Shown: positions 17,055-46,196, counted from the first letter of the stretch. The stretch: 64,000 nucleotides of DNA from Eledone cirrhosa (GCA_964016885.1 CAXHJY010001324.1:1-64000); one strand, 5' to 3'. Notes: generated by a model not told the origin, from the letters alone. Numbers and translations: made by a program.

Positions 17055-17301
17055 TAATAAACAACATAAGGCAATTATTCCATTTACCAGTGGTTTCTTA
17101 AAAGCAAAAAATTTTGCTTTCAATTCTCAGAATGAAAAAAATCCTGGTCATTCTGAGGATTGAAAGCAAAATCTTTTGCTTTTAAGAAACCACTGGTAAA
17201 TGGAATAATTGCCTTATGTTGTTTATTAGATAACTATTAAGCTCTGTTACCTACATAGAGCACTCTTTTTTCCTGGACTTTTCCGACGGAATTACTTCAT
17301 T
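17055..17301 (+). mobile_element. Fold-back Penelope-like end (P1)
   Basis: Inverted arms 17055-17135 and 17148-17228, unique 3' tail, hammerhead present, TA flanks. Confidence 0.7.
17148..17203 (+). ncRNA. Type-I hammerhead ribozyme
   Basis: tcatt-CTGAGGA-ttgaaagcaaaa(tc)ttttgcttttaa-GAAA-ccactgg-TA-aatgg; GUA cleavage triplet; the inverted copy at about 17080-17135 has core CTGAGAA. Confidence 0.8.
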
Positions 17302-17319
17302 TATATATACATATATATA

Positions 17320-17498
17320 TAATTGTTTCTACTTTAGGCACAAGGCCAGCAATTATCCAGTGCATTACTGGTACTTTATTTTATCGACCCCGTAAGGATG
17401 AAAGGCAAAGTCAACCTCGGCGGGATTTGAACTCAGATCGTAAAGGGACGTAACTATGCTGGAAAGCATGGCGTCCGACCCTCTACCGATACTGCCAA
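17320..17498 (-). mobile_element. SINE S1
   Basis: Near-identical to the reverse complement of 41972-42155. Confidence 0.85.
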
Positions 17499-17524
17499 GA
17501 GAGAGAGACGTACGCACACATAAT

Positions 17525-17566
<42 letters not shown>

Positions 17567-17570
<4 letters not shown>

Positions 17571-18214
17571 CTTTAAGTCGTTTGGAAGCCTCGACAATGC
17601 AAATGGGTAAATCTCCGGGTAACAAGATACGGTGGTGGAGAGAGAGAGAGATGTAAGTGGGTGAACGTTGATATGCGTGGCGTGTATAAGACGTGTAGAG
17701 GAATGAAGGATAAAAATAACAACACGAGAGAGAGTTACCTTGGGAGAGATTTAATTGTCCCTATATATTTCGGATTCACATCCATCAACTGGGTTTTTTT
17801 TCCGGGGTGGGGGAAAGGTTATCTGTCAGAAAGGTGCGAAACGCGTCCTCCGCTTTTCAAAACAACGAACAGCGGAGGACGCGTTTCGCACCTTTCCGAC
17901 AGACAACTTTTCCCCCACCCCGGAAAAAAACCCCAGTTGATGGATGTGAATCCGAAATATATAGGGACAATTAAATCTCTCCCAAGGTAACTCTCTCTCG
18001 TGTTGTTATTTTTATTTTTATCCTTTATGCTCTATCCTTCATTCCTCTACACGTCTTATACACGCCAAGCATCTCAACGTACACCCACTTACATCTCTCT
18101 CTCCACCACCGGATCTTGTTACCCGGAGATTTACCCATTTGCATTGTCGAGGCTTCCAAACGACTTAAAGAAATTTACCTTATCATTCCACAATGCTTCA
18201 AGCAAACTTCAATA

Positions 18215-18219
<5 letters not shown>
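17567..18219 (+). mobile_element. Fold-back element (P2) with about 290-bp arms
   Basis: Arms 17567-17858 and 17867-18174, short unique tail, (TA)n on both sides, hammerhead-like motifs. Confidence 0.65.
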
Positions 18220-18284
<65 letters not shown>

Positions 18285-18549
18285 GCGTACTCACACATAA
18301 TATATATATATATATATAAATATATTTCGTTTCTGAATTTGTTTAGCAAGATTCTTTATCTGAAATCGTGTGTTGAAACCGATATTGTTATACTTTGGGA
18401 GGGTCATGTTGCCAATAAGAAACACACGCACCAGTTGCTTTCACTTCAATTTATTATATATTTATAAATTTACAAATTTACAAATCTACAAACTTATAAA
18501 TTTCTGGTTGGTTGGTTGGTTCCACAACCAGATAGTTGTTTATATATAT

Positions 18550-18594
18550 AGTCATAGTCCTTTCGTCACACACTCTGTGACCTCTTCAGTGACT
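18550..18594 (-). ncRNA. Minimal type-I hammerhead ribozyme (inverted copy)
   Basis: Exact reverse complement of 18971-19015. Confidence 0.85.
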
Positions 18595-18970
18595 GGGGAT
18601 TCCTTTCTTCGTTTCTGTGCCTTTCCTTTCTTCTATCCTACGACATTTTGTTTCTGTGTGTGTGTTGTGTGCTCAGTTTGCGCATGTGCCACATCCGGGT
18701 GTCTGTTTGTGTTCATTTTTCTATTTTTCTATTTATATATATTTTTTTATTTTTTTATTTTTTTTTTTATTTTTTTTTATTATTTTTTTTTTTATAAATT
18801 AAAAAAAAAAATATATATATATATAAATAGAAAAATAGAAAAATGAACACAAACACACACAGATACCCGGATGTGGCACATGCGCAAACTGAGCACACAA
18901 CACACACACAGAAACAAAATGGCGTAGGATAGAAGAAAGGAAAGGCACAGAAACGAAGAAAGGAATCCCC

Positions 18971-19015
18971 AGTCACTGAAGAGGTCACAGAGTGTGTGAC
19001 GAAAGGACTATGACT
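18971..19015 (+). ncRNA. Minimal type-I hammerhead ribozyme
   Basis: agtca-CTGAAGA-g-gtcaca(gagtg)tgtgac-GAAA-ggac-TA-tgact: stem I 5 bp, stem II 6 bp, minimal stem III. Confidence 0.85.
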
Positions 19016-19332
19016 ATATATATAAACAACTATCTGGTTGTGGAACCAACCAACCAACCAGAAAATTATAAGTTTGTAGATTTGTAAATTTATAAATATA
19101 TAATAAATTGAAGTGAAAGCAACTGGTGCGTGTGTTTCTTATTGGCAACATGACCCTCCCAAAGTATAACAATATATAAATATATATATATGTATATATA
19201 TATGTATATAAATATATATATATATGTATATAAATATATATATATATGTATATAAATATATATATATATGTATATAAATATATATATATATGTATATAAA
19301 TATATATATATATGTATATAAATGTATATATG

Positions 19333-20673
19333 TAACTTTGAATAACTTTGAAATGTTTTGGCCAGTATTGGCCCAGGCCATGTCTAATTTAATAGCACCA
19401 CCTGGCGAAGTCTTTCAATTCAGGATTTGGGCACCATGGCCCATTCGAGAAGAGAATTACTGTTTGCGGAGACATATCCGGGTGTGGGTGGTTTGTCCGG
19501 GATTACTTGGGGGAATTTGTCCAAAGACTTCTTGAATTTTGTGTGGTCAGTTTCTGTTTTGACGTGTCCTGGTGTGATGTTGAAGAGAGCAGGGCCAATT
19601 GAGGTGAAATAATTGTGCCGTATTGTTGTTATGAGTTGCGATTTAGATTTTTGTATGGGACGGATAGCACGGGGCCCAAGCCTTGGGTGTATCTTGAAGG
19701 TGATGCCAACATCATTTGGGCAGTGATGATGGAACATTTTCCACATCATGCAGATAATATAACGCTCACGGCGACGTTGAAGTGAGTAAAGTTTCAGCTT
19801 TTCTATTCGACCCCAGTAGTCAAGGTCTGACATGCCATCTATCTTTTTCGTGATTGCCCTTTGAGGAGCTTCAAGTTTCATGATACTTTGTTTCGTGTGG
19901 CGAGACCACAGTGGACAACAGTATTCAAGGTGTGGTCGGGCAAAAGTAGAGAAGAGAAGGATAATGGTGTGGGAATCTCTCGACTGGAAGGTTCTGAGGA
20001 TCCAGGAACACATTCTGCGGGCCATGTCAACTTTGCTGCTTATATGCGTGGCCCAGCTTATGTTGCTGTCCACGGTTACTCCCAAGTCTCTGATGTTGTT
20101 AGATGCCACGAGAGTTTCCCCGGGTTGGGTTCTGTTTGACAGGAAGCTCTTGATCCACTGCAGCAGCTTTCCAGTGACACCAATATTGGACAGTTTTCTC
20201 AGTAGAATGTTATGATCAACCCTGTCAAAGGCCTTGCTGAAATCAAGGTAGATAACATCAGTGTTGGAACCCTCTCCCAAGGCTCTCAAAATGTCATCAA
20301 AGTGATGCAGTAGCTGCGTCAGGCAATCTCTTCCATTACGGAATCCATGCTGGTTGGAGTTCAGCATATTGTTACTCTCAAGGAAGTGGGTCATTCGCGA
20401 TCTCACCACTCTCTCAAATACCTTAATGATATGAGAGGTGAGTGAGATTGGACGGTAATTCACGGCAAGGGATTTGTTTCCCTTTTTTGAAAACTGGGAC
20501 AACAGACTGGGATAGAAGGTTTTCTGGCACATATCCAGCATCCAGTGAGTTCCGCCACAGATTGGCAAGAGGAGATGCAAGTTGGTGTTGACACGCCTTC
20601 AAGACACAAGCAGGGAACCTATCGGGACCTACTGCTGAATTATGCTTGATTGCCTTTATTGCCGCTAAGACAT
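19333..20673 (-). pseudogene. Same LINE, copy A, internally deleted and frameshifted RT
   Basis: Junction NRTQ/PGETL lacks 324 bp (copy C 26011-26334) including PQG and FADD; one extra T in the run at about 20483-20488. Confidence 0.92.
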
Positions 20674-21101
20674 AGATACATGTATATAGATATATGTATA
20701 TATATATAGATATATGTATATATATATAGATATATGTATATAGATATATGTATATAGATATATGTATATAGATATATGTATATAGATATATGTATATAGA
20801 TATATGTATATAGATATATGTATATAGATATATGTATATAGATATATGTATATAGATATATGTATATAGATATATCTATATAGATATATCTATATAGATA
20901 TATCTATATAGATATATCTATATAGATATATGTATATAGATATATGTATATAGATATATGTATATATGTATATGTATATAGATATATGTATATATGTATA
21001 TAGATATATGTATATAGATATATGTATATATGTATATATATATAGATATATGTATATAGATATATGTATATGTATATAGATATATGTATATAGATATATG
21101 T
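20674..21101. repeat. 14-bp TATATAGATATATG satellite
   Basis: Tandem units visible directly; the same unit occurs at 27087-27525. Confidence 0.9.
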
Positions 21102-22639
21102 ATAATTCAGCAGTAGGTCCCGATAGGTTCCCTGCTTGTGTCTTGAAGGCGTGTCAACACCAACTTGCTTCTCCTCTTGCCAATCTGTGGCGGAACTCAC
21201 TGGATGCTGGATATGTGCCAGAAAACCTTCTATCCCAGTCTGTTGTCCCAGTTTTCAAAAAGGGAAACAAATCCCTTGCCGTGAATTACCGTCCAATCTC
21301 ACTCACCTCTCATATCATTAAGGTATTTGAGCGAGTGGTGAGATCGCGAATGACCCACTTCCTTGAGAGTAACAATATGCTGAACTCCAACCAGCATGGA
21401 TTCCGTAATGGAAGGGATTGCCTGACGCAACTACTGCATCACTTTGATGACATTTTGAGAGCCTTGGGAGAGGGTTCCAACACTGATGTTATCTACCTTG
21501 ATTTCATCAAGGCCTTTGACACGGTTGATCATAACATTCTACTGAGAAAGCTGTCCAATATTGGTGTCACTGGAAAGCTGCTGCAGTGGATCAAGAGCTT
21601 CCTGTCAAACAGAACCCAACATGTTGTAGTTGAGGGAGTCAAATCAAGCCCAGCCAAAGTCAGCAGTGGAGTCCCACAAGGCACTGTGTTGGGCCCACTT
21701 CTCTTCATCATCTATATTAATGACATCACTGACATCATCAAACACAGCAACATTAAAATTTTCGCTGATGATTCCAAGCTCCAAAAGGTCATCAATGGCG
21801 TGGATGACCGGATAAGCCTTCAGTCAGACCTACTGGCTGTTACCCAATGGGCAGAAAAGAACAACATGTTACTGAATGAAGACAAATTCGAACTGATCCA
21901 CTTTGGAAAAGAGGATGCTCTGAAACTCCCGTACTCCGGGGAAACTCTCGTGGCATCTAACAACATCAGAGACTTGGGAGTAACCGTGGACAGCAACATA
22001 AGCTGGACCACGCATATAAGCAGCAAAGTTGACATGGCCCGCAGAATGTGTTCCTGGATCCTCAGAACCTTCCAGTCGAGAGATTCCCGCACCATTATCC
22101 TTCTCTTCTCTACTTTCGCCCGACCACACCTTGAATACTGTTGTCCACTGTGGTCTCCCCACACGAAACAAAGTATCATGAAACTTGTAGCTCCTCAAAG
22201 GGCAATCACGAAAAAGATAGATGGCATGTCAGACCTTGACTACTGGGGTCGATTGGAAAACCTGAAACTTTACTCACTCCAACGTCGCCGTGAGCGTTAT
22301 ATTATCTGCATGATGTGGAAAATGTTCCATCATCACTGCCCAAATGATGTTGGCATCGCCTTCAAGATACACCCAAGGCTTGGGCCCCGTGCTATCCGCC
22401 CCATTCAAAAATCTAAATCGCAACTCATAACAACAATACGGCACAATTATTTCACCTCAATCGGCCCTGCTCTCTTCAACATCACACCAGGACACGTCAA
22501 AACAGAAACTGACCACACAAAATTCAAGAAGTCTTTGGACAAATTCCTCCAAGTAATCCCGGACAAACCACCCACACCCGGATATGTCTCCGCAAACAGT
22601 AATTCTCTTCTCGAATGGGCCATGGTGCCCAAATCCTGA
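21098..22639 (+). CDS. LINE reverse transcriptase fragment, 513 aa (ATG comes from the flanking microsatellite)
   Basis: PQG and FADD motifs present; 9-bp in-frame deletion (LPS) relative to copy C; [11 protein letters not shown] variant. Confidence 0.85.
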
Positions 22640-22726
22640 ATTGAAAGACTTCGCCAGGTGGTGCTATTAAGTTAGACATGGCCTGGGCCAATACTGGCCA
22701 AAACATTTCAAAGTTATTCAAAGTTA
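21102..22726 (+). mobile_element. Same LINE, 5'-truncated copy B
   Basis: Matches copy C; same 3' tail tcaaagttattcaaagtta; 5' end abuts the TATATAGATATATG tract. Confidence 0.93.
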
Positions 22727-22866
22727 TATATAGATATATGTATATATATGTATATGTAGATATATGTATATATATGTATATGTATATATATGTATATGTA
22801 GATATATGTATATATATGTATATGTATATATGTAGATATATGTATATATATGTATACATATGTAGA

Positions 22867-22902
<36 letters not shown>

Positions 22903-22939
22903 GAAGGATTTAAATGGATACAGTTTAGTTAAAAGGAAT

Positions 22940-23060
22940 TTATTGACACGTGTTTCAATAACAGTTACAAAACCTGAAAACAGCTGCTATCTACAAAGTA
23001 TTCGTTATGCAGACATTCAATATTTCAATGTTATTATCAACTGTCATTTCATCAGAATAA
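22940..23060 (-). ncRNA. Type-I hammerhead ribozyme (inverted copy of 23555-23675)
   Basis: Core and stems identical; the few substitutions lie inside the stem-II insertion. Confidence 0.82.
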
Positions 23061-23554
23061 TTTTACTGTCTATACGTGTGTATATAAAGATAAGTTGAGT
23101 ATGAAAATGTATACACATGAATGCGTATGTATGTACATGTATATATGTATATATATATATATGTGCATGTGTATATGTATGTAAGTATGAGCATGTAAGT
23201 ATGTGTATGTGAGTATATGTATTTTGTAGAGGTGTGCATATATGTTTGTGTGTGAATGCTTGGGCGAAAGGATACGTACACTTGAAAGAAAAATTTAAGT
23301 TTGAATGTTAATTAAGTGCAAACACAAAACCAACCATGCATATCTATACTATCTCTAATCCTTCTATAGATTTAGAAAAATAACCAATAATATACTCTAT
23401 TAAAAATGTCAAAACAACAGATGGGAATCTAATTACTCACTGCCACCAAAAATTCTCACTGCTATCAAAAATCCACTCCCTCAACTATTATTCTAACAAC
23501 TTCACCCCTCCCTCCTAATATTCTCTATAAAAACCAAACAGGTCCTCAGTAAAA

Positions 23555-23675
23555 TTATTCTGATGAAATGACAGTTGATAATAACATTGAAATATTGAAT
23601 GTCTGCATAACTAATACTTTGTATATAGCAGCTGTTTTCAGGTTATGTAACTGTTATTGAAACACGTGTCAATAA
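23555..23675 (+). ncRNA. Type-I hammerhead ribozyme with long stem-II insertion
   Basis: ttatt-CTGATGA-aatgacagtt...aactgttatt-GAAA-cacgtg-TC-aataa; palindromic stem III; predicted cleavage after C23670. Confidence 0.82.
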
Positions 23676-23826
23676 ATTCCTTTTAACTCAACTGTATCCA
23701 TTTAAATCCTTCTATTTTTCTCCGGATTACTTTTGGAACTACAACAGGAACCGTCGAGCAAACTCTACGTGAGCTGTCCATCTACTGTGTATAATATTTA
23801 TATTACAACACTACGGAAAATACTAT

Positions 23827-23864
23827 ATGCATATGTATATGTATATATGTATATGTATATAAAT

Positions 23865-23901
<37 letters not shown>

Positions 23902-24000
23902 AATATATATATATATAAATATATATATATATAAATATATATATATATAAATATATATATATATAAATATATATATATATAAATATATATATATATAAAT

Positions 24001-24058
<58 letters not shown>

Positions 24059-24066
24059 GTATATAA

Positions 24067-24145
<79 letters not shown>

Positions 24146-25161
24146 AATATATATATGTATATATGTATATATATATATGTATATAAATATATATATATGT
24201 ATATATGTATATAAATATATATATATGTATATATGTATATAAATATATATATATGTATATATGTATATAAATATATATATATGTATATATGTATATAAAT
24301 ATATATATATGTATATATGTATATAAATATATATATATGTATATATGTATATAAATATGTATATATGTACATAAATGTATATATGTATATATGTACATAA
24401 ATATATATATATATATATGTATATATGTATATAAATATGTATATATGTATATAAATATATATGTATATAAATATGTATATATGTATATATGTATATATGT
24501 ATATATGTATATAAATATATATGTATATATGTATATAAATATATATGTATATAAATATATATGTATATATGTATATAAATATATATGTATATATGTATAT
24601 AAATATATATGTATATATGTATATAAATATATATGTATATATGTATATAAATATATATGTATATATGTATATAAATATATATGTATATATGTATATATGT
24701 ATATATGTATATAAATATATATGTATATATGTATATAAATATATATGTATATATGTATATAAATATATATGTATATATGTATATAAATATATATGTATAT
24801 ATGTATATAAATATATATGTATATATGTATATAAATATATATGTATATATGTATATAAATATATATGTATATATGTATATAAATATGTATGTATATATGT
24901 ATATAAATATGTATGTATATATAAATATGTATGTATATATGTATATAAATATATATGTATATAGATATATATATATATGTATATATGTATATAGATATAT
25001 ATATATATGTATATAGATATATGTATATGTATATAGATATATGTATATATGTATATATATGTATATGTGTATATGTATATGTGTATATGTATATAGATAT
25101 ATGTATATAGATATATGTATATGTATATAGATATATGTATATATGTATATATATGTATATG

Positions 25162-25192
<31 letters not shown>

Positions 25193-25219
25193 ATGTATAT
25201 GTATATATGTATATGTATA
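23827..25219. repeat. 1.4-kb complex TA-derived satellite
   Basis: (TA)n with periodic AAA and TG; 24-bp unit tatataaatatatatgtatatatg in the middle. Confidence 0.95.
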
Positions 25220-27049
25220 TAACTTTGAATAACTTTGAAATGTTTTGGCCAGTATTGGCCCAGGCCATGTCTAACTTAATAGCACCACCTGGCGAAGTCT
25301 TTCAATTCAGGATTTGGGCACCATGGCCCATTCGAGAAGAGAATTACTGTTTGCGGAGACATATCCGGGTGTGGGTGGTTTGTCCGGGATTACTTGGAGG
25401 AATTTGTCCAAAGACTTCTTGAATTTTGTGTGGTCAGTTTCTGTTTTGACGTGTCCTGGTGTGATGTTGAAGAGAGCAGGGCCGATTGAGGTGAAATAAT
25501 TGTGCCGTATTGTTGTTATGAGTTGCGATTTAGATTTTTGAATGGGACGGATAGCACGGGGCCCAAGCCTTGGGTGTATCTTGAAGGCGATGCCAACATC
25601 ATTTGGGCAGTGATGATGGAACATTTTCCACATCATGCAGATAATATAACGCTCACGGCGACGTTGGAGTGAGTAAAGTTTCAGGTTTTCCAATCGACCC
25701 CAGTAGTCAAGGTCTGACATGCCATCTATCTTTTTCGTGATTGCCCTTTGAGGAGCTTCAAGTTTCATGATACTTTGTTTCGTGTGGGGAGACCACAGTG
25801 GACAACAGTATTCAAGGTGTGGTCGGGCGAAAGTAGAGAAGAGAAGGATAATGGTGCGGGAATCTCTCGACTGGAAGGTTCTGAGGATCCAGGAACACAT
25901 TCTGCGGGCCATGTCAACTTTGCTGCTTATATGCGTGGTCCAGCTTATGTTGCTGTCCACGGTTACTCCCAAGTCTCTGATGTTGTTAGATGCCACGAGA
26001 GTTTCCCCGGAGGGAAGGGAGTACGGGAGTTTCAGAGCATCCTCTTTTCCAAAGTGGATCAGTTCGAATTTGTCTTCGTTCAGTAACATGTTGTTCTTTT
26101 CTGCCCATTGGGTAACAGCCAGTAGGTCTGACTGAAGGCTTATCCGGTCATCCACGCCATTGATGACCTTTTGGAGCTTGGAATCATCAGCGAAAATTTT
26201 AATGTTGCTGTGTTTGATGATGTCAGTGATGTCATTAATATAGATGATGAAGAGAAGTGGGCCCAACACAGTGCCTTGTGGGACTCCACTACTGACTTTG
26301 GCTGGGCTTGATTTGACTCCATCAACTACAACATGTTGGGTTCTGTTTGACAGGAAGCTCTTGATCCACTGCAGCAGCTTTCCAGTGACACCAATATTGG
26401 ACAGCTTTCTCAGTAGAATGTTATGATCAACCCTGTCAAAGGCCTTGCTGAAATCAAGGTAGATAACATCAGTGTTGGAACCTTCTCCCAAGGCTCTCAA
26501 AATGTCATCAAAGTGATGCAGTAGTTGCGTCAGGCAATCCCTTCCATTACGGAATCCATGCTGGCTGGAGTTCAGGATATTGTTACTCTCAAGGAAGTGG
26601 GTCATTCGCGATCTCACCACTCGCTCAAATACCTTAATGATATGAGAGGTGAGTGAGATTGGACGGTAATTCACGGCAAGGGATTTGTTTCCCTTTTTGA
26701 AAACTGGGACAACAGACTGGGATAGAAGGTTTTCTGGCACATATCCAGCATCCAGTGAGTTCCGCCACAGATTGGCAAGAGGAGAAGCAAGTTGGTGTTG
26801 ACACGCCTTCAAGACACAAGCAGGGAACCTATCGGGACCTACTGCTGAATTATGCTTGATTTCCTTTATTGCCGCCAAGACATCAGGGGCGCCAAACGTT
26901 ATGTCCGATAAGGTGTAATGGGGAGTAACATCGCCGATACAGCCCAGATCGGCCATATCAGGATTGCTGAAAACAGAGCAGTATTGTTTCTGCAGTATCT
27001 CACCCATGGTTTTAGCATTGTCTTGAAGAGTGCCATTTTCATCAATTAG
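25220..27049 (-). mobile_element. Non-LTR retrotransposon (CR1/Jockey-group LINE), 5'-truncated copy C
   Basis: RT ORF plus 3' UTR ending in (TTCAAAGTTA)x2; near-identical to copies A and B; flanked by TA-type microsatellites; no endonuclease domain. Confidence 0.93.
25307..27007 (-). CDS. LINE reverse transcriptase, 566 aa, uninterrupted but N-terminally truncated ORF2
   Basis: Motifs [56 protein letters not shown]; frame stays open upstream to about 27049. Confidence 0.92.
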   Translation of the reverse strand: MGEILQKQYCSVFSNPDMADLGCIGDVTPHYTLSDITFGAPDVLAAIKEIKHNSAVGPDRFPACVLKACQHQLASPLANLWRNSLDAGYVPENLLSQSVVPVFKKGNKSLAVNYRPISLTSHIIKVFERVVRSRMTHFLESNNILNSSQHGFRNGRDCLTQLLHHFDDILRALGEGSNTDVIYLDFSKAFDRVDHNILLRKLSNIGVTGKLLQWIKSFLSNRTQHVVVDGVKSSPAKVSSGVPQGTVLGPLLFIIYINDITDIIKHSNIKIFADDSKLQKVINGVDDRISLQSDLLAVTQWAEKNNMLLNEDKFELIHFGKEDALKLPYSLPSGETLVASNNIRDLGVTVDSNISWTTHISSKVDMARRMCSWILRTFQSRDSRTIILLFSTFARPHLEYCCPLWSPHTKQSIMKLEAPQRAITKKIDGMSDLDYWGRLENLKLYSLQRRRERYIICMMWKMFHHHCPNDVGIAFKIHPRLGPRAIRPIQKSKSQLITTIRHNYFTSIGPALFNITPGHVKTETDHTKFKKSLDKFLQVIPDKPPTPGYVSANSNSLLEWAMVPKS

Positions 27050-27481
27050 ATATGTATATGTATATTATATACATATACAATTAGAATGTATATAGATATA
27101 TGTATATAGATATATGTATATAGATATATGTATATAGATATATGTATATAGATATATGTATATAGATATATGTATATAGATATATGTATATAGATATATG
27201 TATATAGATATATGTATATAGATATATGTATATAGATATATGTATATAGATATATGTATATAGATATATGTATATAGATATATGTATGTATATAGATATA
27301 TGTATGTATATAGATATATGTATGTATATAGATATATATATGTATATCGATATATATATGTATATAGATATATATATATGTATATAGATATATATATATA
27401 TATGTATATAGATATATATATATATATGTATATAGATATATATATATATATGTATATAGATATATATATATATGTATATAG

Positions 27482-27512
<31 letters not shown>

Positions 27513-27525
27513 TATATGTATATAG
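27050..27525. repeat. 14-bp TATATAGATATATG satellite decaying to (TA)n
   Basis: Tandem units visible directly. Confidence 0.9.
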
Positions 27526-27780
27526 ATTACACTAATCTAAATATAGCAGGGTGAACGCTGTGGGATTTTAAGTATTTACATGCATATACAATGTTACTGT
27601 TAGGGACCAATGTCAGAACATTTTACTAATAGTTTCAGATAGTCGACAATAATAGAAGTAAAGTCAATACAATTATAATTATGTCCTAAATGTGCTTATA
27701 ATTTCAGACTAATTATTCCTATGTTGTTCTCCAAACCACAGGGATAAACAGTGAAAGTTGTTCGGTTACAATTATAAAAA

Positions 27781-27834
27781 TACCGTTTTCCCTATAGTCA
27801 TATATATATATATATGACTATAGGGAAAACGGTA
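27781..27834. repeat. Palindrome centred on a TA run (P8)
   Basis: taccgttttccctatagtca-(TA)n-tgactatagggaaaacggta; the adjacent 27850-27903 segment recurs inverted at about 58868-58920. Confidence 0.7.
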
Positions 27835-27948
27835 ATTTTATTTATGGTCTTTAAAGCGATGAAACACCAATGATGGTTGGAAGATCACTGATGAAGGACT
27901 AACTTTATTCATATGTAACCCATTAGCAACCCAGCAGCACGTTTTTCT

Positions 27949-27981
<33 letters not shown>

Positions 27982-28022
27982 GCACATGCACGATGCTCTA
28001 GCGTATCACCAGCTAACATTAA

Positions 28023-28432: not shown

Positions 28433-28507
28433 CAGTATTATTATTATTATTACAATCATTACAGATGAATAATATACTCCCACTGAATAATATATATACA
28501 TACATAT

Positions 28508-28711
28508 ATAGGAAAAGAGTCAGAATCCCGACGGCAGAGCTCAAGCCGTTTCGACAGCTATTTCTGGACTGTCCAGAAATAGCTGTCGAAACGGCTTGAG
28601 CTCTGCCGTCGGGGTTCTGACTCCTTTTCTATTACCCACTCTACTAGCCAAAGTATCGAGCACTCTGTTGCGTTATGGTCCACCTGGTTCCTTACCACAC
28701 TTCCTTCGTTA
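28508..28711 (+). mobile_element. Palindromic element family P6, best-preserved copy
   Basis: Near-perfect palindrome centred on T28570, unique tail ending ccttcgtta; contains the 3' half of a hammerhead (GAAAcggc...gccgTC). Confidence 0.72.
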
Positions 28712-28727
28712 CACACACACACACCCA

Positions 28728-28833
28728 TCCACACCACACCACACCACACCACACCACACCACACCACACCACACCACACCACACCACACCACACCACACC
28801 ACACCACACCACACCACACCACACCACACCACA
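28728..28833. repeat. (CACAC)n pentanucleotide repeat
   Basis: Visible directly. Confidence 0.95.
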
Positions 28834-34909: not shown

Positions 34910-34952
<43 letters not shown>

Positions 34953-37717
34953 TGGAAAATTACGTTTTGCTCAGTGATTCAAAACGCTCCACCGGAATAT
35001 GAGAATTACATAGTTCAATCCCCTGTAGTGACTGCCGACTCATTTGGGAGTTCTGGGACATAATTTATATTAACGAATGAATTTCTTTGAATTTTAGCAG
35101 TTTGTTTTAAGTTTATGGTTGTATCGTTACAGATGTGGACATTTGCAGCGATTCTTTTAGTTTTGAAGCTGGAGGCATTTCTAAATTAGTTCGCTAACTG
35201 CTCATTTCTTTTTTTTTTGTTTGCGGTATCGTCAACTGACGCTTGGCTTTGAAATTCTACACATAAAGCGATCCTGTTAAATTATTGTAAACTTTCGCAG
35301 GTCGAAAAGCCACGTATGTGCTGTTACATGCTTAAGACGTCCTACGCTCTATTTTTGCCTCCGTTTTCATTCTGCCGTAGAGATGGATCCCTATCTTATC
35401 AGCTAGGTTAGCTGTACCAAGTAAGAGATGTTAGTTGATATGCAACAGTAGCCGACAACATGAAGGCTATATAATCAAATTCATTTTTTCAGCTGTCTTC
35501 TACAAACATTACTATCACAAGGAAAATTATGTCTATTAAATTTCCGTACTTTTCCTACAAGGAATTGACCAAGCTATGGGCAAGCCCTACTCTACAACAT
35601 TTGCAATCTAATAACTAAAAAACCTATAATGTATTTACGCTAAATTGTAGCTATCGACAGACAATATTTGATATATATTATTCTAAGGAATGGAGTGCAT
35701 CTTCTTAATTTTATCAGTTTTCTTTTTTTTCGGAAATTTCTTGAAACGTAAGATGTAGGATAAGAAATAATGTTTTTACCGAGTGTTAGAATATATTGCG
35801 TACTTACTGTAAACATACAAATACAAAAGAGGTAATGTATTTTCCTTGGAATAAATATATTTTGAAAAAACTAAATCTAATGACAGAGAGAAAGAGAGGT
35901 GGGAGGAATGAAAATTGGGAGAAAGTGTGTATGTGAATGAGAGAGTGAGTAGGATATCTTTTGTAGATAGTTTTCAAACAACCATGGCGTGTGAACTAAA
36001 TCGATTATGATGTAATGTGTAAAGAATTCAATGCGGCGTCCACTCATAGAATAACACAAACAATTGATCAAGGAATGGTACTGTGTTTGTTGTCAAGATA
36101 TTTCTTTGGAGTTTTCTGAGATGTCCATGGTAGTTGATGCCCGTGGGAGGAGAGTTCAAATGTCGTATGGGGGAGTGATGTTGGACCTCCTTCGGTTACG
36201 ATGACGAGTGTTTTAATTGAATTGATCAACGGGACAGTCTGCTCTTCAAAATAAACGTGAAAGTGGCTGAGTATTCCACAGACATGCGTACACTGTGATC
36301 CCAGGGAGATTCAGCCTGCCACAAATTGTGACAAGGTTGTCCATTTGAATTACTGTTATAACACAATTTTGTCAGATAATTAGATTGGAGCAGCGTGAAA
36401 TAATGTCTTCTTCAATAACACAATGCGCCTTCTTGTCGGGAATCGAATTTATTATATGATGATCGTTGGCTCTCTGTCCTAAACACCAAGCCACGCGCCT
36501 TCACAGTGACTGCTGTACAGCCGCCACAGAATGGTGTCTAAATTAGGCTCAAGCTGAACATATTTTTGCGAAGCACTACTTGATTAGTGCTTTAACTTAC
36601 CTATCGCGCAATAGTGAAAGGCAAGGTTGATCAAGGCATCTTTTAAACTCAGAAAGTAAAGAGCTTGAATAAATACCGCTGAGCATTTTGTTCGATATTC
36701 TACCGATACTAATCTATTCGGTGATTTTACTGTGAATTTTAAATACGTGATGTGCATGGATACATGTCATCTATTCAAGATCCAACTAATAAACAACTGC
36801 AGAGATGACTATCCTTCTATAAACAGGAGTCAAATTCTTACAAAGACAAGGTACAAATCCAGCCACAGAGTTAACATTCAGCTCTTGATGGTACTAACTT
36901 GATTCAGCCGAGGGAACTGGAACAACGTGATTTAAGTGCCTTACACTAAGACACGATGATGATTTTCCAAGGAAACAGAAACTATAGGTATTTTGTTAAC
37001 CCCGATTATTCAGCTGTTCGTTCTAAGAAACAAGCTTAGGTCTTTATGATCACGAGCCTCGAACATACAAACTAGATTCACCTTCACCATGGCGATAAAA
37101 AAAAAGTATTTGTTAGTCCGTACTTAACCCACAAGTGAATCTCCTGAGTAACAAGACTCATTACTTAGTCATTGAAGAATATTATTAAACGTTACTTCGG
37201 TATTGCGTACTCATTCTCACAGCCATCTACATCACATGAAAGAGCCAGCTAGTTAGATGGCAGGCTAAACAGAGAAGGCTAATTTCTGTTATGAATGAAA
37301 TAATTCTATATTTAGAATATGTGCATGTTGCATTTAGTCTCCTATTTGTGTTCCATGAATTCGAAATTAAATGTTATAACGTTTTTGAGAGACTATCGTG
37401 TTCGTGTGACAGACTGACAAAAAGGCCTTATGGTTATTACAATAAATATTGAATTATATTAATACTGTTAGAATTTAAAAAAATCTCAAAAACTTTAAAG
37501 TACTACTATAACGGTGAATTAAGTAATTTAACTGAACTAATGAAGCTATACACAACATTAACTATATAGTTCATTAGTAAACTACTCGTAAAAAAGTATT
37601 TAGTTCTTTTTCAAATCATGTTCAGTACTTATGTTTGTAGAAACAGTGGAGCTAACTTCCAATGTAATTAATGTCTTTCACATTACAAATAGAACATATT
37701 TGCAGAACGATAATAAT

Positions 37718-38080
37718 AATTGTTTCTACTTTTGGCACAAGGCCAGCAATTTGAAGGGAACGGGCTAAGTCGATTAAATCGACCAAAGTGTGTTACTGGT
37801 ATGTCTTTATCGACCCCCGTAACGATGAAAGGCAAAGCTAACCACGGCGGGATTTGATATGAAGAATAAAAATAAAGCAATATTATTAATCCATGGCGGT
37901 GAATTGGCAGTATCGGTAGAGGGTCGGATACCATGCTTTGACGCATAGAGTTACGGCCCTTGCCATTCTGAGTTCAAATCCAGCCGAGGTTAACTTTACC
38001 TTTCATCCTTACGGGGTCGATAAAATAAAGTACCAGTAATGCACTAGGTAATTGCTGGCCTTGTGCCAAAAGTAGAAACA
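37718..38080. mobile_element. S1 SINE pair: partial minus copy 37718-37857 and full plus copy 37895-38080
   Basis: Homology to S1; TSD attattaatcc around the plus copy. Confidence 0.82.
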
Positions 38081-40499
38081 ATTATTAATCCTTGTCAGTG
38101 TTAATATAAACAATATGGATAAAGTGTGTATGTCGGAGAAGGTATGTGGACGTATGTTTGACTGATAGAGAATCTAAATATAATCATAAAATTACTAAAT
38201 TGCCAGACATTTCTATTAATGAAAAACATTTTCACACAGAAAGCATAATCAAGACACATGCGTATGCATACACACAGACACGCGCGCGCACACACACACA
38301 CTGAGATAGACAGACAGGCATAATGCATCCATATACGCACATATATAAATGTTTACATACATTTATATGTATTTGTGTGTATGTACATATATGTATAAAC
38401 ATACATGTATGTATTCATATAAACATGCATAAACATACATAGGTCTCTCTCTGTACGTATCTATGTGTGTATAAATTTAAATTAGAAATGATAGAAAAAA
38501 TGTTAAACTGCTGATTTTACATGCTATAGAAAGAGCAAATACATTTAAGAATAGTCGTGTTCTTGAAATTGCCGCAAATATAAACACTTTGGTACATTAA
38601 AATATATTGATCTCTGACTGTTTAATGTAAATGACTTATTTTTAAGTTTCATACTCTATACATTCAGTTTTTAAATTCCTATTTGTTTAATGTATGTAAA
38701 ATATTGTATAGCGAAACTTTAAGACTTATATAGCCGCCATTAATATCTATTCAGCTTCTATTAAAATATCAATTTCATTGAAAAGAAGAAAAAAATATAA
38801 TTCAAAAAGAGACAAGAATTTAAGATATGTTTGAATGTAGAGTAACAGATAAATAACTGAAACTATCGAAGTTTCATACAATCCCATACAAGAGCTTAAA
38901 TCACAAGAATATCATAACAATATACTTGAAAAATATTCTTTAAAAAAAAAAAGAAATAAAAGCAACTGCTGCTCCAGCATACTTATGTTAAGATAGTTTT
39001 GAAGAACTTCAGATATACAAAAAAAAAAAAATATTCGGTTCTCTTTCATTTATGTACTTGTAATTTAAAAAAAGATATATATATTGTCCAAGAATTCACT
39101 TTAAATATTTTCAAGTAAAGAAAAGAAACTATAAAAATATAACCTTAAAATGTCTGATGTAACTTTGTATATTTTTATATATTCATTTTGTATTACTTAA
39201 AGATATTTTAAGAGCTGTCTGGAAGCTCTTGATCTTTTGGTTCTTAAGTGCTAAAATTGTGCTATGATCATGTTTATGGAATATAGTTTTTTGCGTATGG
39301 TTGTAAAAGTTGTAAGAGACATGTAGCAGTTAATTGTGAAGAAAAAGTAGATAAATTGAAGCAGAAATATTTCAAGTAAAAGAATGAAATAACTTCTGAT
39401 TGAGATTAAAAAATGAAGCAAAATATATTAGTTTCACTCTTTCTATACCCCCAGAAACATATCAGGCACAAGTGTTTTTGCTTTTATTTTATCCATCTAG
39501 CATTTTATCAATTTTATAAAAAAAGAGAACGTATATGTTATTTTTATAAAGTAAAGGAACATTTAACGAAATATCAATTTGATTTCATTGAAACATCAAC
39601 ATTTATACATTTTATATAAACAGAAAAAATTATGTATATCTATAAAGTTAAACTATATTCATAAGTTATTTGTCACTTAATTATGCATTTTATAAAAATA
39701 ACTTTGGAACTGAGAGTAGTAGTATTAACATATTTCATAATAATATATTCATATTTCAACTAATTCAATGTTTAGCACGGTTTTTAAATGTGAGAAAGAG
39801 GAAACGTGAATGTGAAAGAATGCATTTTGAAATAGGTTTTGTCTGTAAAATTGAAATAAATGGGAGGACGTATTCTTTCAGACAAGCTAGGAACCCGTTG
39901 GAAAAAAAGATATACACATCACACGAGATAAGAACGGATATATTTTTAAGTGGAGGCATCAAGAAGAAATTACTTATGGTTAGTTTGATAAACTTGAGAG
40001 AGAATTAGCTAAACAAAAATTACATTAGTGTTATTCAGTGTCATATTAGATTTGCTAACAGTTTTTCAAAATTGAGATCACTTTAGTTATGTTGCTCTTT
40101 AAACAGTGACGTTCTTAGGATTGCGTTCCTTCCAGTTAGATTTCACGAATAAGATTGCCCATAAATAGTTTGAATAGGTAATGTTATTTGTAAGAGTGAA
40201 ATGAAGATATTTAACTTGAAGAATCTAACGTCTCCGCTGAAAGCGGTAAATAGTGTGTCTTTCGCATATAGCACAACGCATAAGTACATAAGTTGAAAGT
40301 ACTACATATCATTTTTAAATATTTCTGTAGAGACCCACACGGAAGTGTCAATCTCGGCTGCAGTGAATGTATTCTGAAGGCACTGTCTGCTGATGTTGTT
40401 TATTTTCTATTATCAAATGCATGTTTCTTTAGTAGCAAGCTCTTGCTTCTCTCTACCTCTTAAACACACACCTAGTTCCAGCCTCTAGCAAAAACAACC

Positions 40500-40780
40500 A
40501 CTAGCAACAGCCACTTCATCTTTGGCGTTACTGTTCAATGACTTTATGTCTCTCTTGTAGATATCTTTGAAATAAATGATGTCACTCATGAGCTGCCCTG
40601 CCAGAAGGCAGCGAATCGGAGAGTGTAGGACTTTCAGCATCCTTCCATGTGATCGGAAGTGTATTTGACTGATAGATTTTGTATGCGGAGCATTTTTGTA
40701 GAGACCTTCCTTGCTGGTTGTAATGATGGAATAGTAAAGGAGGTTGTGGCAGACAGCCATGAAAATGCAATAGATAAAGG
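40500..40780 (-). pseudogene. Possible very old RTE-like LINE fragment
   Basis: YFKDIYKRDIK resembles the RTE C-terminal RFKD..KRD.K motif. Confidence 0.3.
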
Positions 40781-41083
40781 ACATTTAAACAATATATAAA
40801 ATATAAAAATATATTTTATTAAATTTTCCTAGGTGACATAAAGATATTTACCAATAGTGTATGCAAATTTGTTTAAACATTTGTTGTGAAGAGTATAGGT
40901 AAAATATTCAAATAAATGTACTTTATAAATCAAATAAATCTATCTCCACAGTGTGTTCACTATTATTGTTGACAGAGACATTGTAGGACATCGTATATTA
41001 AATTAATTTCATATTTGGTTTCTAGTTATGAATTTAATATATATTTATTGGAATAAGAAAGTGTGTTTGTTTGTATGTATGTA

Positions 41084-41124
<41 letters not shown>

Positions 41125-41971
41125 GTATATAATAAAGTAGCAGTTTATCCTATGATGGCATACAATTTAATAAAAGATAAAACACTATCTGATATAAAAG
41201 TTTCCAAAAGAGGAGAATTTTAGATATTATTAGGTTTTAAATGGCGGTCCTGATTAAAAATAAAACTATATATCTCTCTCTCTCTTTGTATATACACTCA
41301 AACACTAAATCAAATCCAGTTCACTTGTGTTTGCCTTACTTATAAATATAACGGAAAGTCAATAGCTTAAGTAGACAAAAGGTAGAGTATATTTACTGTT
41401 ACAAGAAACTGATGAAAATAAAAAAAAATAGAAATATGATAAACAGTGATTAGATTTACATTTTCAAATGTTGTAGTTTTTCCTCTTTGTTTCAGGTAAT
41501 AAACATATTTTGTCTAACTTTAACTTGGTGTAGAGAAAGGCAAACACATATTCATGGAAAGATTGTACATTACATTTGTCATACTGGTATGGTTTACTTT
41601 CCTTCTTTCTTCTTCTCCCTTAAAAGTAGCTATTTTGTTTGTATTATTGAAATTATTGAAAAAAAATGCTTATTTATTCATTTTTAATATTCTTTGAATG
41701 TGGAATATATCCCCCTGAAGTCAGTTTAGCAAATGGCAAGTGACAGTCGATATTAAACATGTCCCCTAGATACGATAATGCATGCATATTTATATCATTT
41801 GCCTATAGGGCAAATTATAGTCTATTCTTTGTTTAAACGGTATTACATATATCAAACTATTATTTTTCGAAACGACAAAACGTTAGTTTAAGCAGCTATT
41901 TAGGCCGTTGAACGAGAATATTATTGTTCTTTTTATTGCACTATCATGCAAGTACATTATTTAATTTTAGA

Positions 41972-42155
41972 GGCGGTGGATTGGCAGTATCGGTAGAGGG
42001 TCGGACGCCATGCTTTCCAGCATAGTTACGTCCCTTTATGATCTGAGTTCAAATCCCGCCGAGGTTGACTTTGCCTTTCATCCTTACAGGGTCGATAAAA
42101 TAAAGTACCAGTAATGCACTGGGTAATTGCTGGCCTTGTGCCTAAAGTAGAAACA
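41972..42155 (+). mobile_element. tRNA-derived SINE (family S1, Nin/Deu-like central domain), full length with TSD
   Basis: B-box gagttcaaatcc; gactttgcctttcatcctt..gggtcgataaaataaagtacc domain; 16-bp TSD attatttaattttaga at 41956-41971 and 42156-42171. Confidence 0.88.
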
Positions 42156-43028
42156 ATTATTTAATTTTAGAATTTGTAGTTAAACATGAATGATATATAG
42201 TTAAAATAAATTGAAAATATACAATCTTTTTATGCTACCTTACATAAATATCGATGGTAAACAGACGTATATGAAAGATATTTAACTTCATTCAAACCCA
42301 CGAATTTGTCGAAATAGTATTTAACAACTGATGCTTACAATGCAATATATACACGTATACTACAATGGAGTGTGTCTGACAGAACTCGTGTGCATTAAAT
42401 CAATATTCATAATATGATTCTGAGCTCAGTACTAAAAGCTACTGAAATATTTGTTGAATATTGAACAGATAACTACGCCGCACCTCCATGGTGTATATTA
42501 TCAGTTTGGTAAACTGGTAATTCGAAATTGAATTATTTTCATTACGGATATAATGCAAAATTAGTTACCCAGATTATTATATTAGTACAGAATAAATATA
42601 ATATATATGCACGTATAGGCACATAGTTATGCATGTACACTGAATCCTCAATCTAGGAAGTACTTTATAAAGACAACACCAGTAATTAAATGTAATATAA
42701 CTCCATATTATAACTGAGAATCTATTTATTTTCATCTATAATTAATTCAATAATTATGGTGGACGAAACTTTACCACTAATAAATCTGTGTCTCTTAAAC
42801 GTCCATGTCTTGTTTTGATTTTTGTTAAAATTCCATGTGTGGAAACATAATTATAGAGTTGGAATACTTCTGTTGTCACATCAAAGCAATAAAAAAAAAA
42901 AAGCTAAAGTATAGGTTTCAGTAACAAACTGATTTCCTGTGTTAGAAAACGAAGAGGAGTTCCACCCGCAGAAGAAAATAAACATAGAAAGAATGTTTTA
43001 GTCTTCGTAGTATCGCGCGCTCTCTCTC

Positions 43029-43084
<56 letters not shown>

Positions 43085-43308
43085 TGCGTATTTTCCCCAA
43101 ATGGTTTACTGAGCACAAATGCATTTTCTGCAAAAAAAATGTATTCCTTTTCTTCCACTTCTCATTCTCTATCTTTTTATTTCTTCTTTAGTTCTTCATC
43201 AGAAGATATAGTGAGAAATCAGAGTTCGAAACGAAACGTTGACTCTTTTACTACGATATTAAGCATTAAACTAATATATATCTTTATTGTACTGTATTGT
43301 TTGCTAGG

Positions 43309-43314
<6 letters not shown>

Positions 43315-43386
<72 letters not shown>

Positions 43387-43563
43387 CTCTCTCTCACTCT
43401 CTCATTCTCTCTCATTCTCTCTCTCACTCTCACTCTCTCACTCTCACTCTCTCACACTCTCTCTCTCTCACTCTCTCTCTCACTCTCTCTCTCTCCCCCT
43501 CTCCCTCTCTCACTCTCTCTCTCTCACTCTCTCTCTCTCACTCTCTCCCTCTCCCACTGTCTC
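43315..43563. repeat. (CT)n / CTCA polypyrimidine tract
   Basis: Visible directly. Confidence 0.95.
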
Positions 43564-44414
43564 TAGATCTACTTGTTTCGCTCTCTAATTTCACTATGCA
43601 TCTACCTATCTCTTTTACATCATCTATACAGTTAACCATTAAAAACCAAGCAATCAACCAAACGTCTATCGTTTTATGCCTTCTAATTCATGCCCTTTAA
43701 TTTCTCTTTAAATGTTTATAACATAAGCAGATTCATAAAATACATTATAACCATTACTGTCGAATAAATAAAGGTACAACTGGTGAATTATATTATTTCA
43801 ATATCTCAACATACTGTTATCTCAACTCCTTACATTGGTATAAAGCACATAAAACTACAGCAACTACCACAGCACCCACATCAAGATTACACATCTGCAC
43901 AGGTACATATATCTTAAGAGAAAATATTATTATTGATCTTCACACTTTGGGTCAAAGGTGGATACTTTTATTCAGTTACCTATTCTTATTGATAGTTTCA
44001 ACCAATGATTAAGTTATTTACAGAACTGAGTATACAGCAAGACAGACTATCGTGGTATTCGTTATCTCATATTGGAAATAAGAGATAACGAATTCGTTTT
44101 AGATTTTTGTTGTTGTTCAAATAAACATTTCTTTTAATAAACAACGACTGTGTGTGTGTGTGTGTGTGTGGTTCGTCTGATAGGCATTTTCTCTGTGTGT
44201 GTTTCCTATACAATCTTCAAATACATGAAAGACCATCAACAGTGAAGAAGCATCGAAGTGGAGAAATAATCAATAGATTGAAGTTATCTACAAAAAAATG
44301 TTTTTCAAAGACTCGCCCATCACTAACACAACACAACGATGGCTAGGTAGATAAATAATCTATTTATCTATATACGTGCGTCTGTGTGTGTGTGTGTGTG
44401 TATATATTGTGTGT

Positions 44415-45535
44415 ATATATGTATATAGACGTGTGTATGTATATATGTATATAGACGTGTGTATGTATATATGTATATAGACGTGTGTATGTATATATGT
44501 ATATAGACGTGTGTATGTATATATGTATATAGACGTGTGTATGTATATATGTATATAGACGTGTGTATGTATATATGTATATAGACGTGTGTGTATGTAT
44601 ATATGTATATAGACGTGTGTGTATGTATATATGTATATAGACGTGTGTGTATGTATATATGTATATAGACGTGTGTGTGTGTATATATGTATATAGACGC
44701 GTGTGTGTGTATATATGTATATAGACGCGTGTGTGTGTATATATGTATATAGACGTGTGTGTGTGTATATATGTATATAGACGTGTGTGTGTGTATATAT
44801 GTATATAGACGTGTGTGTATGTATATATGTATATAGACGTGTGTGTATGTATATATGTATATAGACGTGTGTGTATGTATATATGTATATAGACGTGTGT
44901 GTATGTATATATGTATATAGACGTGTGTGTATGTATATATGTATATAGACGTGTGTGTATGTATATATGTATATAGACGTGTGTGTATGTATATATGTAT
45001 ATAGACGTGTGTGTATGTATATATGTATATAGACGTGTGTGTATGTATATATGTATATAGACGTGTGTGTATGTATATATGTATATAGACGTGTGTGTAT
45101 GTATATATGTATATAGACGTGTGTGTATGTATATATGTATATAGACGTGTGTGTATGTATATATGTATATAGACGTGTGTGTATGTATATATGTATATAG
45201 ACGTGTGTGTATGTATATATGTATATAGACGTGTGTGTATGTATATATGTATATAGACGTGTGTGTATGTATATATGTATATAGACGTGTGTGTATGTAT
45301 ATATGTATATAGACGTGTGTGTATGTATATATGTATATAGACGCGTGTGTATGTATATATGTATATAGACGCGTGTGTGTGTATATATGTATATAGACGC
45401 GTGTGTGTGTATATATGTATATAGACGCGTGTGTGTGTATATATGTATATAGACGCGTGTGTGTGTATATATGTATATAGACGTGTGTGTGTGTATATAT
45501 GTATATAGACGTGTGTGTGTGTATACATGTATATA
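44415..45535. repeat. Minisatellite, 26-28 bp unit, about 40 copies
   Basis: gtgtgt(gt)atgtatatatgtatatagac with block-wise variants. Confidence 0.95.
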
Positions 45536-46008
45536 GATATGTATGCGTACATATATACGTATGAGTATATATATATATATATATATATATATGGTTTTTA
45601 AACATCTGGAATGCGGTTGTTGACTTTTCTGTTACTAAAAATGCGAGCGTTCCCATTTCATTACGACTCTGTTAATACAAGAAAGGATGCTAAGTGGCCA
45701 TTGCGTTTCTCGAGACTCCAAGACTGGTGAGAAGGGAGTTATTCTCAATTGGGAGACATCGATGAGTACTTCTGTAGAGCCCCACACGCGGTTGGTGATG
45801 GTGTTAAACGGAACAACACCTTACATTTACTACCCAATATGGCAGTATGTGGATTCGATCTCGGAACGCTGATTGCTAATACTGATTGCCACATTGTCAT
45901 ATACTCTAACGCTTCCGATAATTCATTAAAGGCAAAATATATACACCGATAGGAGTGGAGTGTACAAATGTGTATATATATATATATATATACACATATA
46001 TATATACG

Positions 46009-46196
46009 TAGGTCCCGGGTTGAGTCGGGGATAACCACAGTAAGTAAGGTACTCAATACATGGCAGAGTAAATTTTTTTTATTTTATAGAAGGAGCTTCT
46101 ACAGGACTAGTACTGTTTCATTCAGCTTCCTGAAGATTTCATCTGAATGAAACAGTACTAGTCCTGTAGAAGCTCCTTCTATAAAATAAATAAAAA
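46009..46196. mobile_element. Fold-back Penelope-like end (P5)
   Basis: Arms 46078-46125 and 46143-46190; hammerhead spans the axis; TA flanks. Confidence 0.65.
46124..46174 (+). ncRNA. Type-I hammerhead ribozyme
   Basis: agcttc-CTGAAGA-tttcatctgaat-GAAA-cag(tactagtc)ctg-TA-gaagct; stem I 6 bp, stem III 4 bp, weak stem II with T-T closing mismatch. Confidence 0.72.

Follow-up and report, generated by a model that had tools for sequence, protein, structure and literature searches.

A 64 kb stretch of the Eledone cirrhosa genome (GCA_964016885.1 CAXHJY010001324.1:1-64000; the whole stretch is hereafter the window) carries four fold-back elements, P1, P3, P4 and P5, each laid out as TA tract, inverted arm, direct arm, one-sided tail and TA tract. 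P1 and P4 are in sense orientation on the plus strand, P3 and P5 on the minus strand. A first-pass annotation had described four elements of this plan, each with a type-I hammerhead ribozyme, and had read them either as non-coding ribozyme-bearing families or as extreme truncations related to Penelope-like elements (PLEs); positions and plan were borne out for all four. We found that they are the 3′ ends, pseudo-long terminal repeat (pLTR) plus tail, of young multi-copy PLEs and not stand-alone non-coding families. Their parts are listed below, with hammerheads as predicted and element types as assigned by motif (EN, endonuclease; UTR, untranslated region).

17055..17149, minus strand: P1 inverted, tail-less arm.
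17148..17300, plus strand: P1 direct arm and tail, the 3′ end (pLTR) of a putative Hydra-type PLE; the tail is the last ~63 nt.
17148..17203, plus strand: predicted P1 type-I hammerhead, with stem I of 5 bp (7 in longer copies), stem II of 11 bp and stem III of 4 bp with a 1-nt loop; predicted cleavage after 17198.
18325..18746, minus strand: P3 direct arm and 60-nt tail (18325-18384), the 3′ end of a putative canonical C-terminal-EN PLE of Neptune/Nematis type; hammerhead core start at 18589.
18819..19175, plus strand: P3 inverted, tail-less arm.
18971-19015, plus strand: predicted P3 hammerhead in the inverted arm, with stem I of 5 bp, an extra nucleotide after the core, stem II of 6 bp and a minimal stem III; predicted cleavage after 19010.
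22900..23068, minus strand: P4 inverted, tail-less arm, with an eroded hammerhead-like core at 23055 and its outer end at -108.
23067..23823, plus strand: P4 direct arm and 108-nt tail (23716-23823), 3′ UTR and pLTR of a putative Hydra-type PLE.
23560-23566 and 23589-23592, plus strand: P4 hammerhead core boxes, without a credible stem I.
46007..46125, minus strand: P5 direct arm (cut within stem II) and ~66-nt tail, the 3′ end of a putative Hydra-type PLE.
46123..46196, plus strand: P5 inverted, tail-less arm, terminating at the 5′ stop point of the family.
46124..46174, plus strand: predicted P5 type-I hammerhead, with stem I of 6 bp, a U-U flanked stem II of 3 bp and stem III of 4 bp with a palindromic loop; predicted cleavage after 46168.

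A palindrome spans 17051-17232 at P1, whose window copy (L001) has its inverted inner end at -18 from the core and its outer end at -68 from the 3′ end, against a family value of -63/-64 (19/21).

The four elements belong to large families. DNA searches of the same genome, in which 40 candidates were scored per family and the main matches showed 95-100% identity, yielded 837 (P1), 1132 (P3), 1521 (P4) and 391 (P5) first-look candidates; exact tail-pattern matches numbered 1,579 for P5 and 15,214 for P3, and reversed controls gave 0. Upstream, long copies of all four families reach an open reading frame (ORF) for a reverse transcriptase (RT) with a C-terminal GIY-YIG domain, recognizable by a YRDD or YVDD motif and by C-terminal GIY-YIG-type motifs. 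A full P3 unit lies between two pLTRs in L126, as does a P5 unit of 4251 bp in L134, which is continuous with L136 over 2974 bp at 91%. For P4, L128 is a tandem with a unit of 3480 bp, and the tail runs directly into the ORF start in L127 and L128. Among 30 loci chosen by the 3′ UTR of the P1 family, the P1 end lay downstream in 14, 6 of which also contained the EN-coding frame; in L190 the beginning of the ORF follows on from the P1 tail, and L188 is a ~8-kb fold-back taking in most of the ORF. Fold-back sizes form a continuum from ~190-bp palindromes up to several-kb forms with an ORF. Domain searches added little: RVT_1 was weak for P3 (E 2e-4, below the cut-off) and absent from the other 4 PLE pieces scanned with Pfam, no PLE-specific domain was matched in them, and PF26215 was found on most named-domain homologues of the P4 ORF.

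Since long copies of every family enter an ORF for RT and GIY-YIG, with the tail running on into its start, the fold-backs are not stand-alone. The first-pass annotation was therefore right to connect them with PLE pLTR hammerheads and inverted 5′ pLTRs and to consider extreme truncation, and its question whether genomic copies extend into such an ORF is answered affirmatively for every family. Its suggestion of independent non-coding ribozyme families or retrozymes is not supported, since the long copies carry ORFs and the unique tail lies just before or at the ORF start; its remark that no RT or GIY-YIG ORF is attached holds inside the window but not genome-wide. Similarly, the lack of mutual similarity it had reported is true of the DNA (no match among P1, P3, P4 and P5 by blastn at E 0.01) but not of the proteins, as the parent RTs of P1, P4 and P5 are mutually 40-49% identical; none of these three matched the P3 RT by blastp at E 0.001. 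Inverted repeats amid TA-rich sequence on a small unplaced contig could also suggest miniature inverted-repeat transposable elements or assembly fold-back artefacts at TA tracts. The asymmetric tail, variable centre and ORF-bearing long copies, in place of symmetric terminal inverted repeats and a fixed interior, speak against such readings; the structure also recurs on many chromosome-scale contigs with family-specific fixed ends, and the arms of the window fold-backs are not fully identical, differing at some positions. We consider either origin next to impossible.

The ends of the arms indicate how the fold-backs may have arisen. In the 30 best-scoring loci per family, the window copy being included in each set, an inverted arm was present in 21 (P1), 17 (P3), 8 (P4) and 24 (P5). 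The 3′ end of the copies is fixed and followed by TA, and the outer end of the inverted arm falls short of it by a nearly constant distance: 63-64 nt in 19/21 P1 copies, 60 in 16/17 P3 copies and 108 in 7/8 P4 copies, with 66-78 nt, inside an A/T run, in P5. Sets selected by tail and ordered by position gave the same fixed outer end in P3 (16/16 at -60) and P4 (12/12 within 1 nt). PLE RT has been reported to initiate internally on its RNA at two closely adjacent sites, the tail reaching from one to the other, with both target strands being cut and extended (PMC11167929; here and below, cited sources are represented by the portions available to us). The fixed 3′ end and the fixed outer end of the inverted arm, one tail-length apart, match these two start sites. 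Most head-to-head junctions vary among otherwise near-identical copies. In many copies (window P1 and P5; L013, L024, L029, L118) the inverted arm reaches a more 5′ position than its direct partner, an arrangement better explained by head-to-head joining of two primed cDNAs than by a simple fold-back. Self-priming, in which the nascent cDNA folds back or an antisense template is used with no second target-primed event, has been suggested for palindromic PLE junctions (PMC3846280), and many joints here lie at short palindromes or contain hairpin-derived fillers. Yet an inverted arm that reaches further 5′ cannot come from copying of the direct arm, and its outer end sits at a constant internal position bordered by TA, in agreement with the second of the reported RT start sites (PMC11167929), so that we hold this route unlikely.

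It is highly probable that each fold-back is a 5′-truncated insertion, into (TA)n, of the hammerhead-bearing terminal repeat of an ORF-encoding PLE, likely rebuilt at each insertion from two short head-to-head cDNAs. Under this model, the GIY-YIG domain would nick both (TA)n strands, each nicked 3′ end would prime at one of the two RT start sites, and the cDNAs would stop early and then be joined, often via 1-6 nt of microhomology. The pLTR would carry the ribozyme as a passenger, and the ribozyme would not be what causes the fold.

Short palindromes might instead be self-propagating non-autonomous units, resembling retrozymes or short interspersed elements and copied in trans by the PLE enzyme. 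Non-autonomous PLE derivatives and PLE-derived retrozymes have been published (PMC8557442; bioRxiv 10.64898/2026.07.22.740005), very short fold-backs are the commonest P5 form, and a few exact junctions recur, such as inverted -2 / direct -6 in L224, L227, L252, L303 and L336. However, that recurring joint is a 1-nt microhomology at a hot spot, most junctions differ between near-identical copies, the length continuum reaches ORF-bearing copies, and the short copies lack the upstream TATA box. The copies are also dispersed and head to head, with no head-to-tail arrays. We therefore judge this origin very improbable, and truncated insertion of an ORF-bearing PLE remains the preferred explanation. 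Non-LTR (long terminal repeat) retrozymes (bioRxiv 10.64898/2026.07.22.740005) share with the fold-backs a type-I hammerhead, a PLE pLTR origin and the lack of coding in short copies, but consist of head-to-tail tandem units with a hammerhead in each, in contrast to the dispersed head-to-head ends of ORF-bearing elements described here. An array of this published kind does occur elsewhere in the genome: L124:1-6586 (G000:C2, near 311.63 Mb) contains a 424-nt tandem array of 9.7 + 5.8 copies at 100% identity with a type-I hammerhead per unit. It is a true non-LTR retrozyme-like array and a better retrozyme candidate than any window element.

Hammerheads were sought with a type-I descriptor that required the core boxes and UH, a stem I of ≥4, a stem II of ≥3 and a stem III in hairpin or palindromic form; a variant without the unpaired base beside stem II misses P3 and P5 and scores P4 weakly. 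Across the 64-kb window the descriptor gave 4 matches (P1 17153+, P3 18976+ and 18589-, P5 46130+) and none outside these elements, over a background of 0.01 on average and 1 at most in 100 dinucleotide shuffles of the window. P4 did not match: it has the core boxes and a short stem II, but its direct arm offers no stem I longer than 2 bp. The P4 inverted arm, like most family copies, allows at best a 5-bp stem I including 2 G-U pairs and an atypical stem III region of 29 nt, and C occupies core position 4 in 15/34 full P4 cores from 30 tail-selected loci (2 more matches, being truncation joints, were excluded). The Rfam hammerhead models did not match any of the four isolated motifs at E ≤ 10, nor did a hammerhead appear among the 150 of 332 whole-window matches listed, which are hairpin or repeat noise; the isolated motifs folded no better than shuffles (z -1.46 to +1.11). 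With Rfam blank and folds not above shuffles, the case for ribozymes consists of the descriptor and the likeness to published PLE motifs. The model search proposed by the first-pass annotation is thus positive for P1, P3 and P5 by descriptor and for none of the four by Rfam, and its hammerhead in every element passes the descriptor in these three but not in P4. We regard the predicted type-I hammerheads of P1, P3 and P5 as credible and the P4 motif as eroded.

Within each family the hammerhead copies are nearly identical, and P5 differs from a sister family by one compensatory change in stem I. The 10.1-11.1 pair is G-C in P3 only (U-A in P1, U-U in P5, A-U in P4), so that the G10.1-C11.1 of the minimal hammerheads of metazoan PLEs (PMC4209133) is confined to P3; short stem I, the extra post-core nucleotide and palindromic stem III are common to both. 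Published lists contain rows matching the P1 stem III pattern and the P5 U-U and stem III pattern (Hydra hammerheads, PMC8557442 File S2). A P4 sister family (L187:1750-2400), read by eye, resembles P4 in its first core box and in the beginning of stem II but lacks the second box, which suggests that the motif is eroding throughout the P4 lineage. The 3′ UTR of the P1 family (L137-L166; L190) contains a second hammerhead copy ~0.3 kb past the ORF stop and 0.9-1.5 kb upstream of the P1 motif, with G at position 17 in 28/30 loci. The UH rule implies that G17 would block hammerhead cleavage, and the upstream copy is for that reason predicted to be non-cleaving. In the flanks of the fetched loci (~0.7 Mb), the descriptor accepts more than 10 additional hammerhead families; they are nested within these same TA tracts, and several show compensatory changes in their stems. 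Upstream of stem I, P1, P3, P4 and P5 all have a pyrimidine-CAG 3-12 nt before the core, which could be an initiator or a splice acceptor, and in P4 and P5 a TATA box lies 34-35 nt ahead of the core. The Penelope element of D. virilis has an intron whose end falls at helix I (PMC4209133), and TATA and initiator-like motifs similar to those seen here have been noted in the Pen2a_Av pLTR (PMC8557442; PMC3846280).

Where the arms stop relative to the ribozyme was followed in P5, using 90 3′ ends (the first 93 of the 1,579 pattern matches in contig order, minus 3 repeats in two tandem arrays). In those arrays, L300 and L319, P5 ends recur at ~1.06-kb spacing with long AT tracts between them, and each was counted once. 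Relative to the first core base, direct arms (n = 90) end upstream of -40 in 21 copies, at -40 to -9 in 3, at -8 to +2 in 43 and at +3 to +36 in 10, while another 2 stop at the cleavage site and 11 past it; for the inverted arms, present in 56/90 copies, the same bins hold 3, 2, 40, 11, 0 and 0. The ends therefore concentrate in the 11-nt interval from -8 to +2 at the 5′ edge of stem I (43/90 direct, 40/56 inverted), with modes at -6 and -5. Stem I begins at -6, which is 29 nt past the start of the TATA box; the box begins 35 nt before the core. The cleavage site, counted with 2 nt to either side, accounts for the ends of only 2/146 P5 arms, and most arms pass through it. Among the 75 arms spanning -5 to +5, 22 continue through the region and 28 directly meet the opposite arm; of the remaining 25, 15 have G at -7 (template C), where about 6 would be expected by chance at one in four (a hand estimate), and 10 have T at -6 (template A).

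These ends suggest that in P5 the RT runs off the capped 5′ end of a transcript that has not been cleaved: the arms stop at the edge of stem I and not at the cleavage site, which argues for uncleaved RNA as the template. The opposing idea, that the hammerhead cuts the template in vivo and thereby sets the 5′ end or the fold axis, draws on the intact motifs of P1, P3 and P5, on the compensatory stem I change between P5 and its sister, and on the cleavage and circularization proposed earlier (PMC4209133). The scarcity of P5 ends at the cleavage site, the recent amplification of P4 despite its eroded motif and the finding that hammerhead cleavage is dispensable, catalytic mutants still inserting in vitro (PMC11167929), leave it improbable. 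In the uncleaved-template account, the P5 transcript would start at the first base of stem I under the TATA box, and reverse transcription from two internal sites 65-140 nt downstream would run off the capped 5′ end. Most P5 cDNAs would end in this way, and run-off at one 5′ end would produce palindromes of near-fixed size, so that the minimal forms would be a programmed by-product with joints marking the start and the reverse-transcribed cap; read-through transcription of tandem units would account for the longer copies. The template would not be cut by the ribozyme, and P4, having spread recently despite its eroded motif, would demonstrate that elements of the Hydra clade can do without one. 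We put the chances of this extended scenario at about even. No published account of a transcription-start stop point at the hammerhead edge was found in a literature search, most subscription journals being outside its coverage.

Several points count against these readings. Every full-length ORF seen is broken, with a stop or frameshift in each of L126, L128, L134 and L190, and for this reason no active master copy was identified. A sharp 5′ stop is clear in P5 only: P3 arm ends are dispersed (3/46 within -5 to 0), the P4 hot spot is weak (just 4/30 direct and 4/12 inverted ends at -14 to +7), and P1 is known from score-selected copies. In P5 itself, a 4-nt palindrome at -6 to -3 could draw joints by microhomology, and the extra G may not be cap-derived, because joint fillers often copy element sequence. 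Two other candidates did not hold up well. A 3′ splice site at the CAG ahead of stem I fits poorly in P5, the letters upstream of the stop varying by copy, unlike a shared first exon; a P3 transcription-start hot spot just past the hammerhead, hinted at in the best-scoring loci, was absent from the unbiased sample.

The motifs of the parent elements place them in two groups. The Hydra clade has been defined by RWK, DKT replacing DKG, a CxCx5C linker, CxxC and CxH, and no CCHH in the EN, with a tendency to lengths <3 kb (PMC8557442). P1 and P4 have RWK and DKT, P5 has RWR and DKT, and all three have the CxCx5C linker with CxxC and CxH (around conserved E and N in the EN); in the region of the CCHH motif, as read by eye, a C follows the first strand in P4 and P5 but not in P1. 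They also resemble the published clade in their (TA)n targets, TA following 84/90 P5 3′ ends and P1 and P4 copies having TA-rich flanks. On these motifs we assign P1, P4 and P5 to the Hydra type. Canonical hammerheads, called universal in this clade (PMC8557442), are found near the 3′ end in P1 and P5 but not in P4, which is therefore classed as Hydra-type on protein motifs only. The P1 family differs from the clade in its second upstream hammerhead copy with G at position 17. P3 has a YVDD RT and a CX4CxxC linker preceding the C-terminal GIY-YIG, comparable to the CX2-5CxxC linker of Neptune/Nematis (PMC8557442), and its ORF starts within the pLTR/tail region. We assign it to the canonical C-terminal-EN PLEs of Neptune/Nematis type; compared by eye with published alignments, its short linker spacer resembles the Nematis rows of PMC8557442 Fig. 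S2, and no clade name occurred among 24 P3 homologues. Between RT motifs 3 and 4, P3 contains a long insertion with no counterpart in the Neptune and Nematis rows of PMC8557442 Fig. S1; in the L126 ORF, a C-terminal-EN element, ~60-70 aa are inserted at the place of the IFD (insertion in fingers domain) of Naiad, Chlamys and telomerase RTs. Less favourable to the placement, the P1, P4 and P5 units of about 3.5-4.3 kb depart from the <3 kb tendency, the excess being long, microsatellite-rich 3′ UTR, and the clade calls are motif-based.

Much of what is seen here has precedents. The fold-back architecture, the hammerheads and (TA)n targeting are already published, and a Hydra element is already listed from Octopus (PMC8557442, PMC4209133, PMC3846280). 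Canonical insertions of EN+ PLEs (PMC8557442 Fig. 2; PMC3846280) share the inverted arm shorter by the tail, the head-to-head joint and partial tandems, but have tails of 30-40 nt (PMC8557442; PMC3846280), versus 60-108 nt in our families, in which many copies are the pLTR end alone and target-site duplications are unreadable in (TA)n. Penelope-13_HM of the Hydra clade is listed with an inverted 5′-truncated copy (PMC8557442), like the present fold-backs, and opposite-strand hammerhead pairs 100-700 bp apart have been interpreted as truncated PLEs (PMC4209133), a range that includes the spacings of P3 (387 bp) and P4 (505 bp). Hydra-1_Obim of Octopus bimaculoides is listed with a (TA)n preference and a hammerhead (PMC8557442 supplement), that hammerhead being unlike the P1, P3, P4 and P5 motifs, and O. 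vulgaris has 31 recently active Penelope-like families (PMC13282606). The earlier proposal that such elements are possibly uncatalogued in cephalopods is accordingly weak as a claim of novelty.

As elements, then, the four are ordinary: a known PLE structure with known hammerheads, in a clade with a published Octopus member. They are of value for the material they offer, four young families whose fixed ends record in vivo the two sites at which RT starts. The P5 stop point is relevant to the question of what PLE hammerheads do, and the P4 family, with its eroded motif, and the P1 family, with a second motif carrying G17, are natural variants for testing the need for cleavage. What these families add on PLE hammerhead function is modest: the stop point in P5, the erosion of the motif in P4 and its doubling in P1.

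Other repeats share the window. P2 (17564-18230) is a fifth fold-back with the plan of the other four and 2687 first-look candidates in the genome; the type-I descriptor found no hammerhead within it, and its long copies L178, L179 and L181 continue into an ORF with RT (YVDD) and C-terminal GIY-YIG. At 19172-27064 lie several copies, in inverted arrangement, of a non-PLE long interspersed element (RVT_1, E 1e-31), which, going by its motifs, we take to be CR1/L2-like. These copies end in TA tracts, and P3 and P4 abut those tracts. Further palindromes occur at 16662-16937, 28508-28632, 54667-54784, 61592-61817 and 5929-6057; the descriptor found no hammerhead in these five, and some of them derive from a ~190-bp dispersed repeat with many copies in the window.

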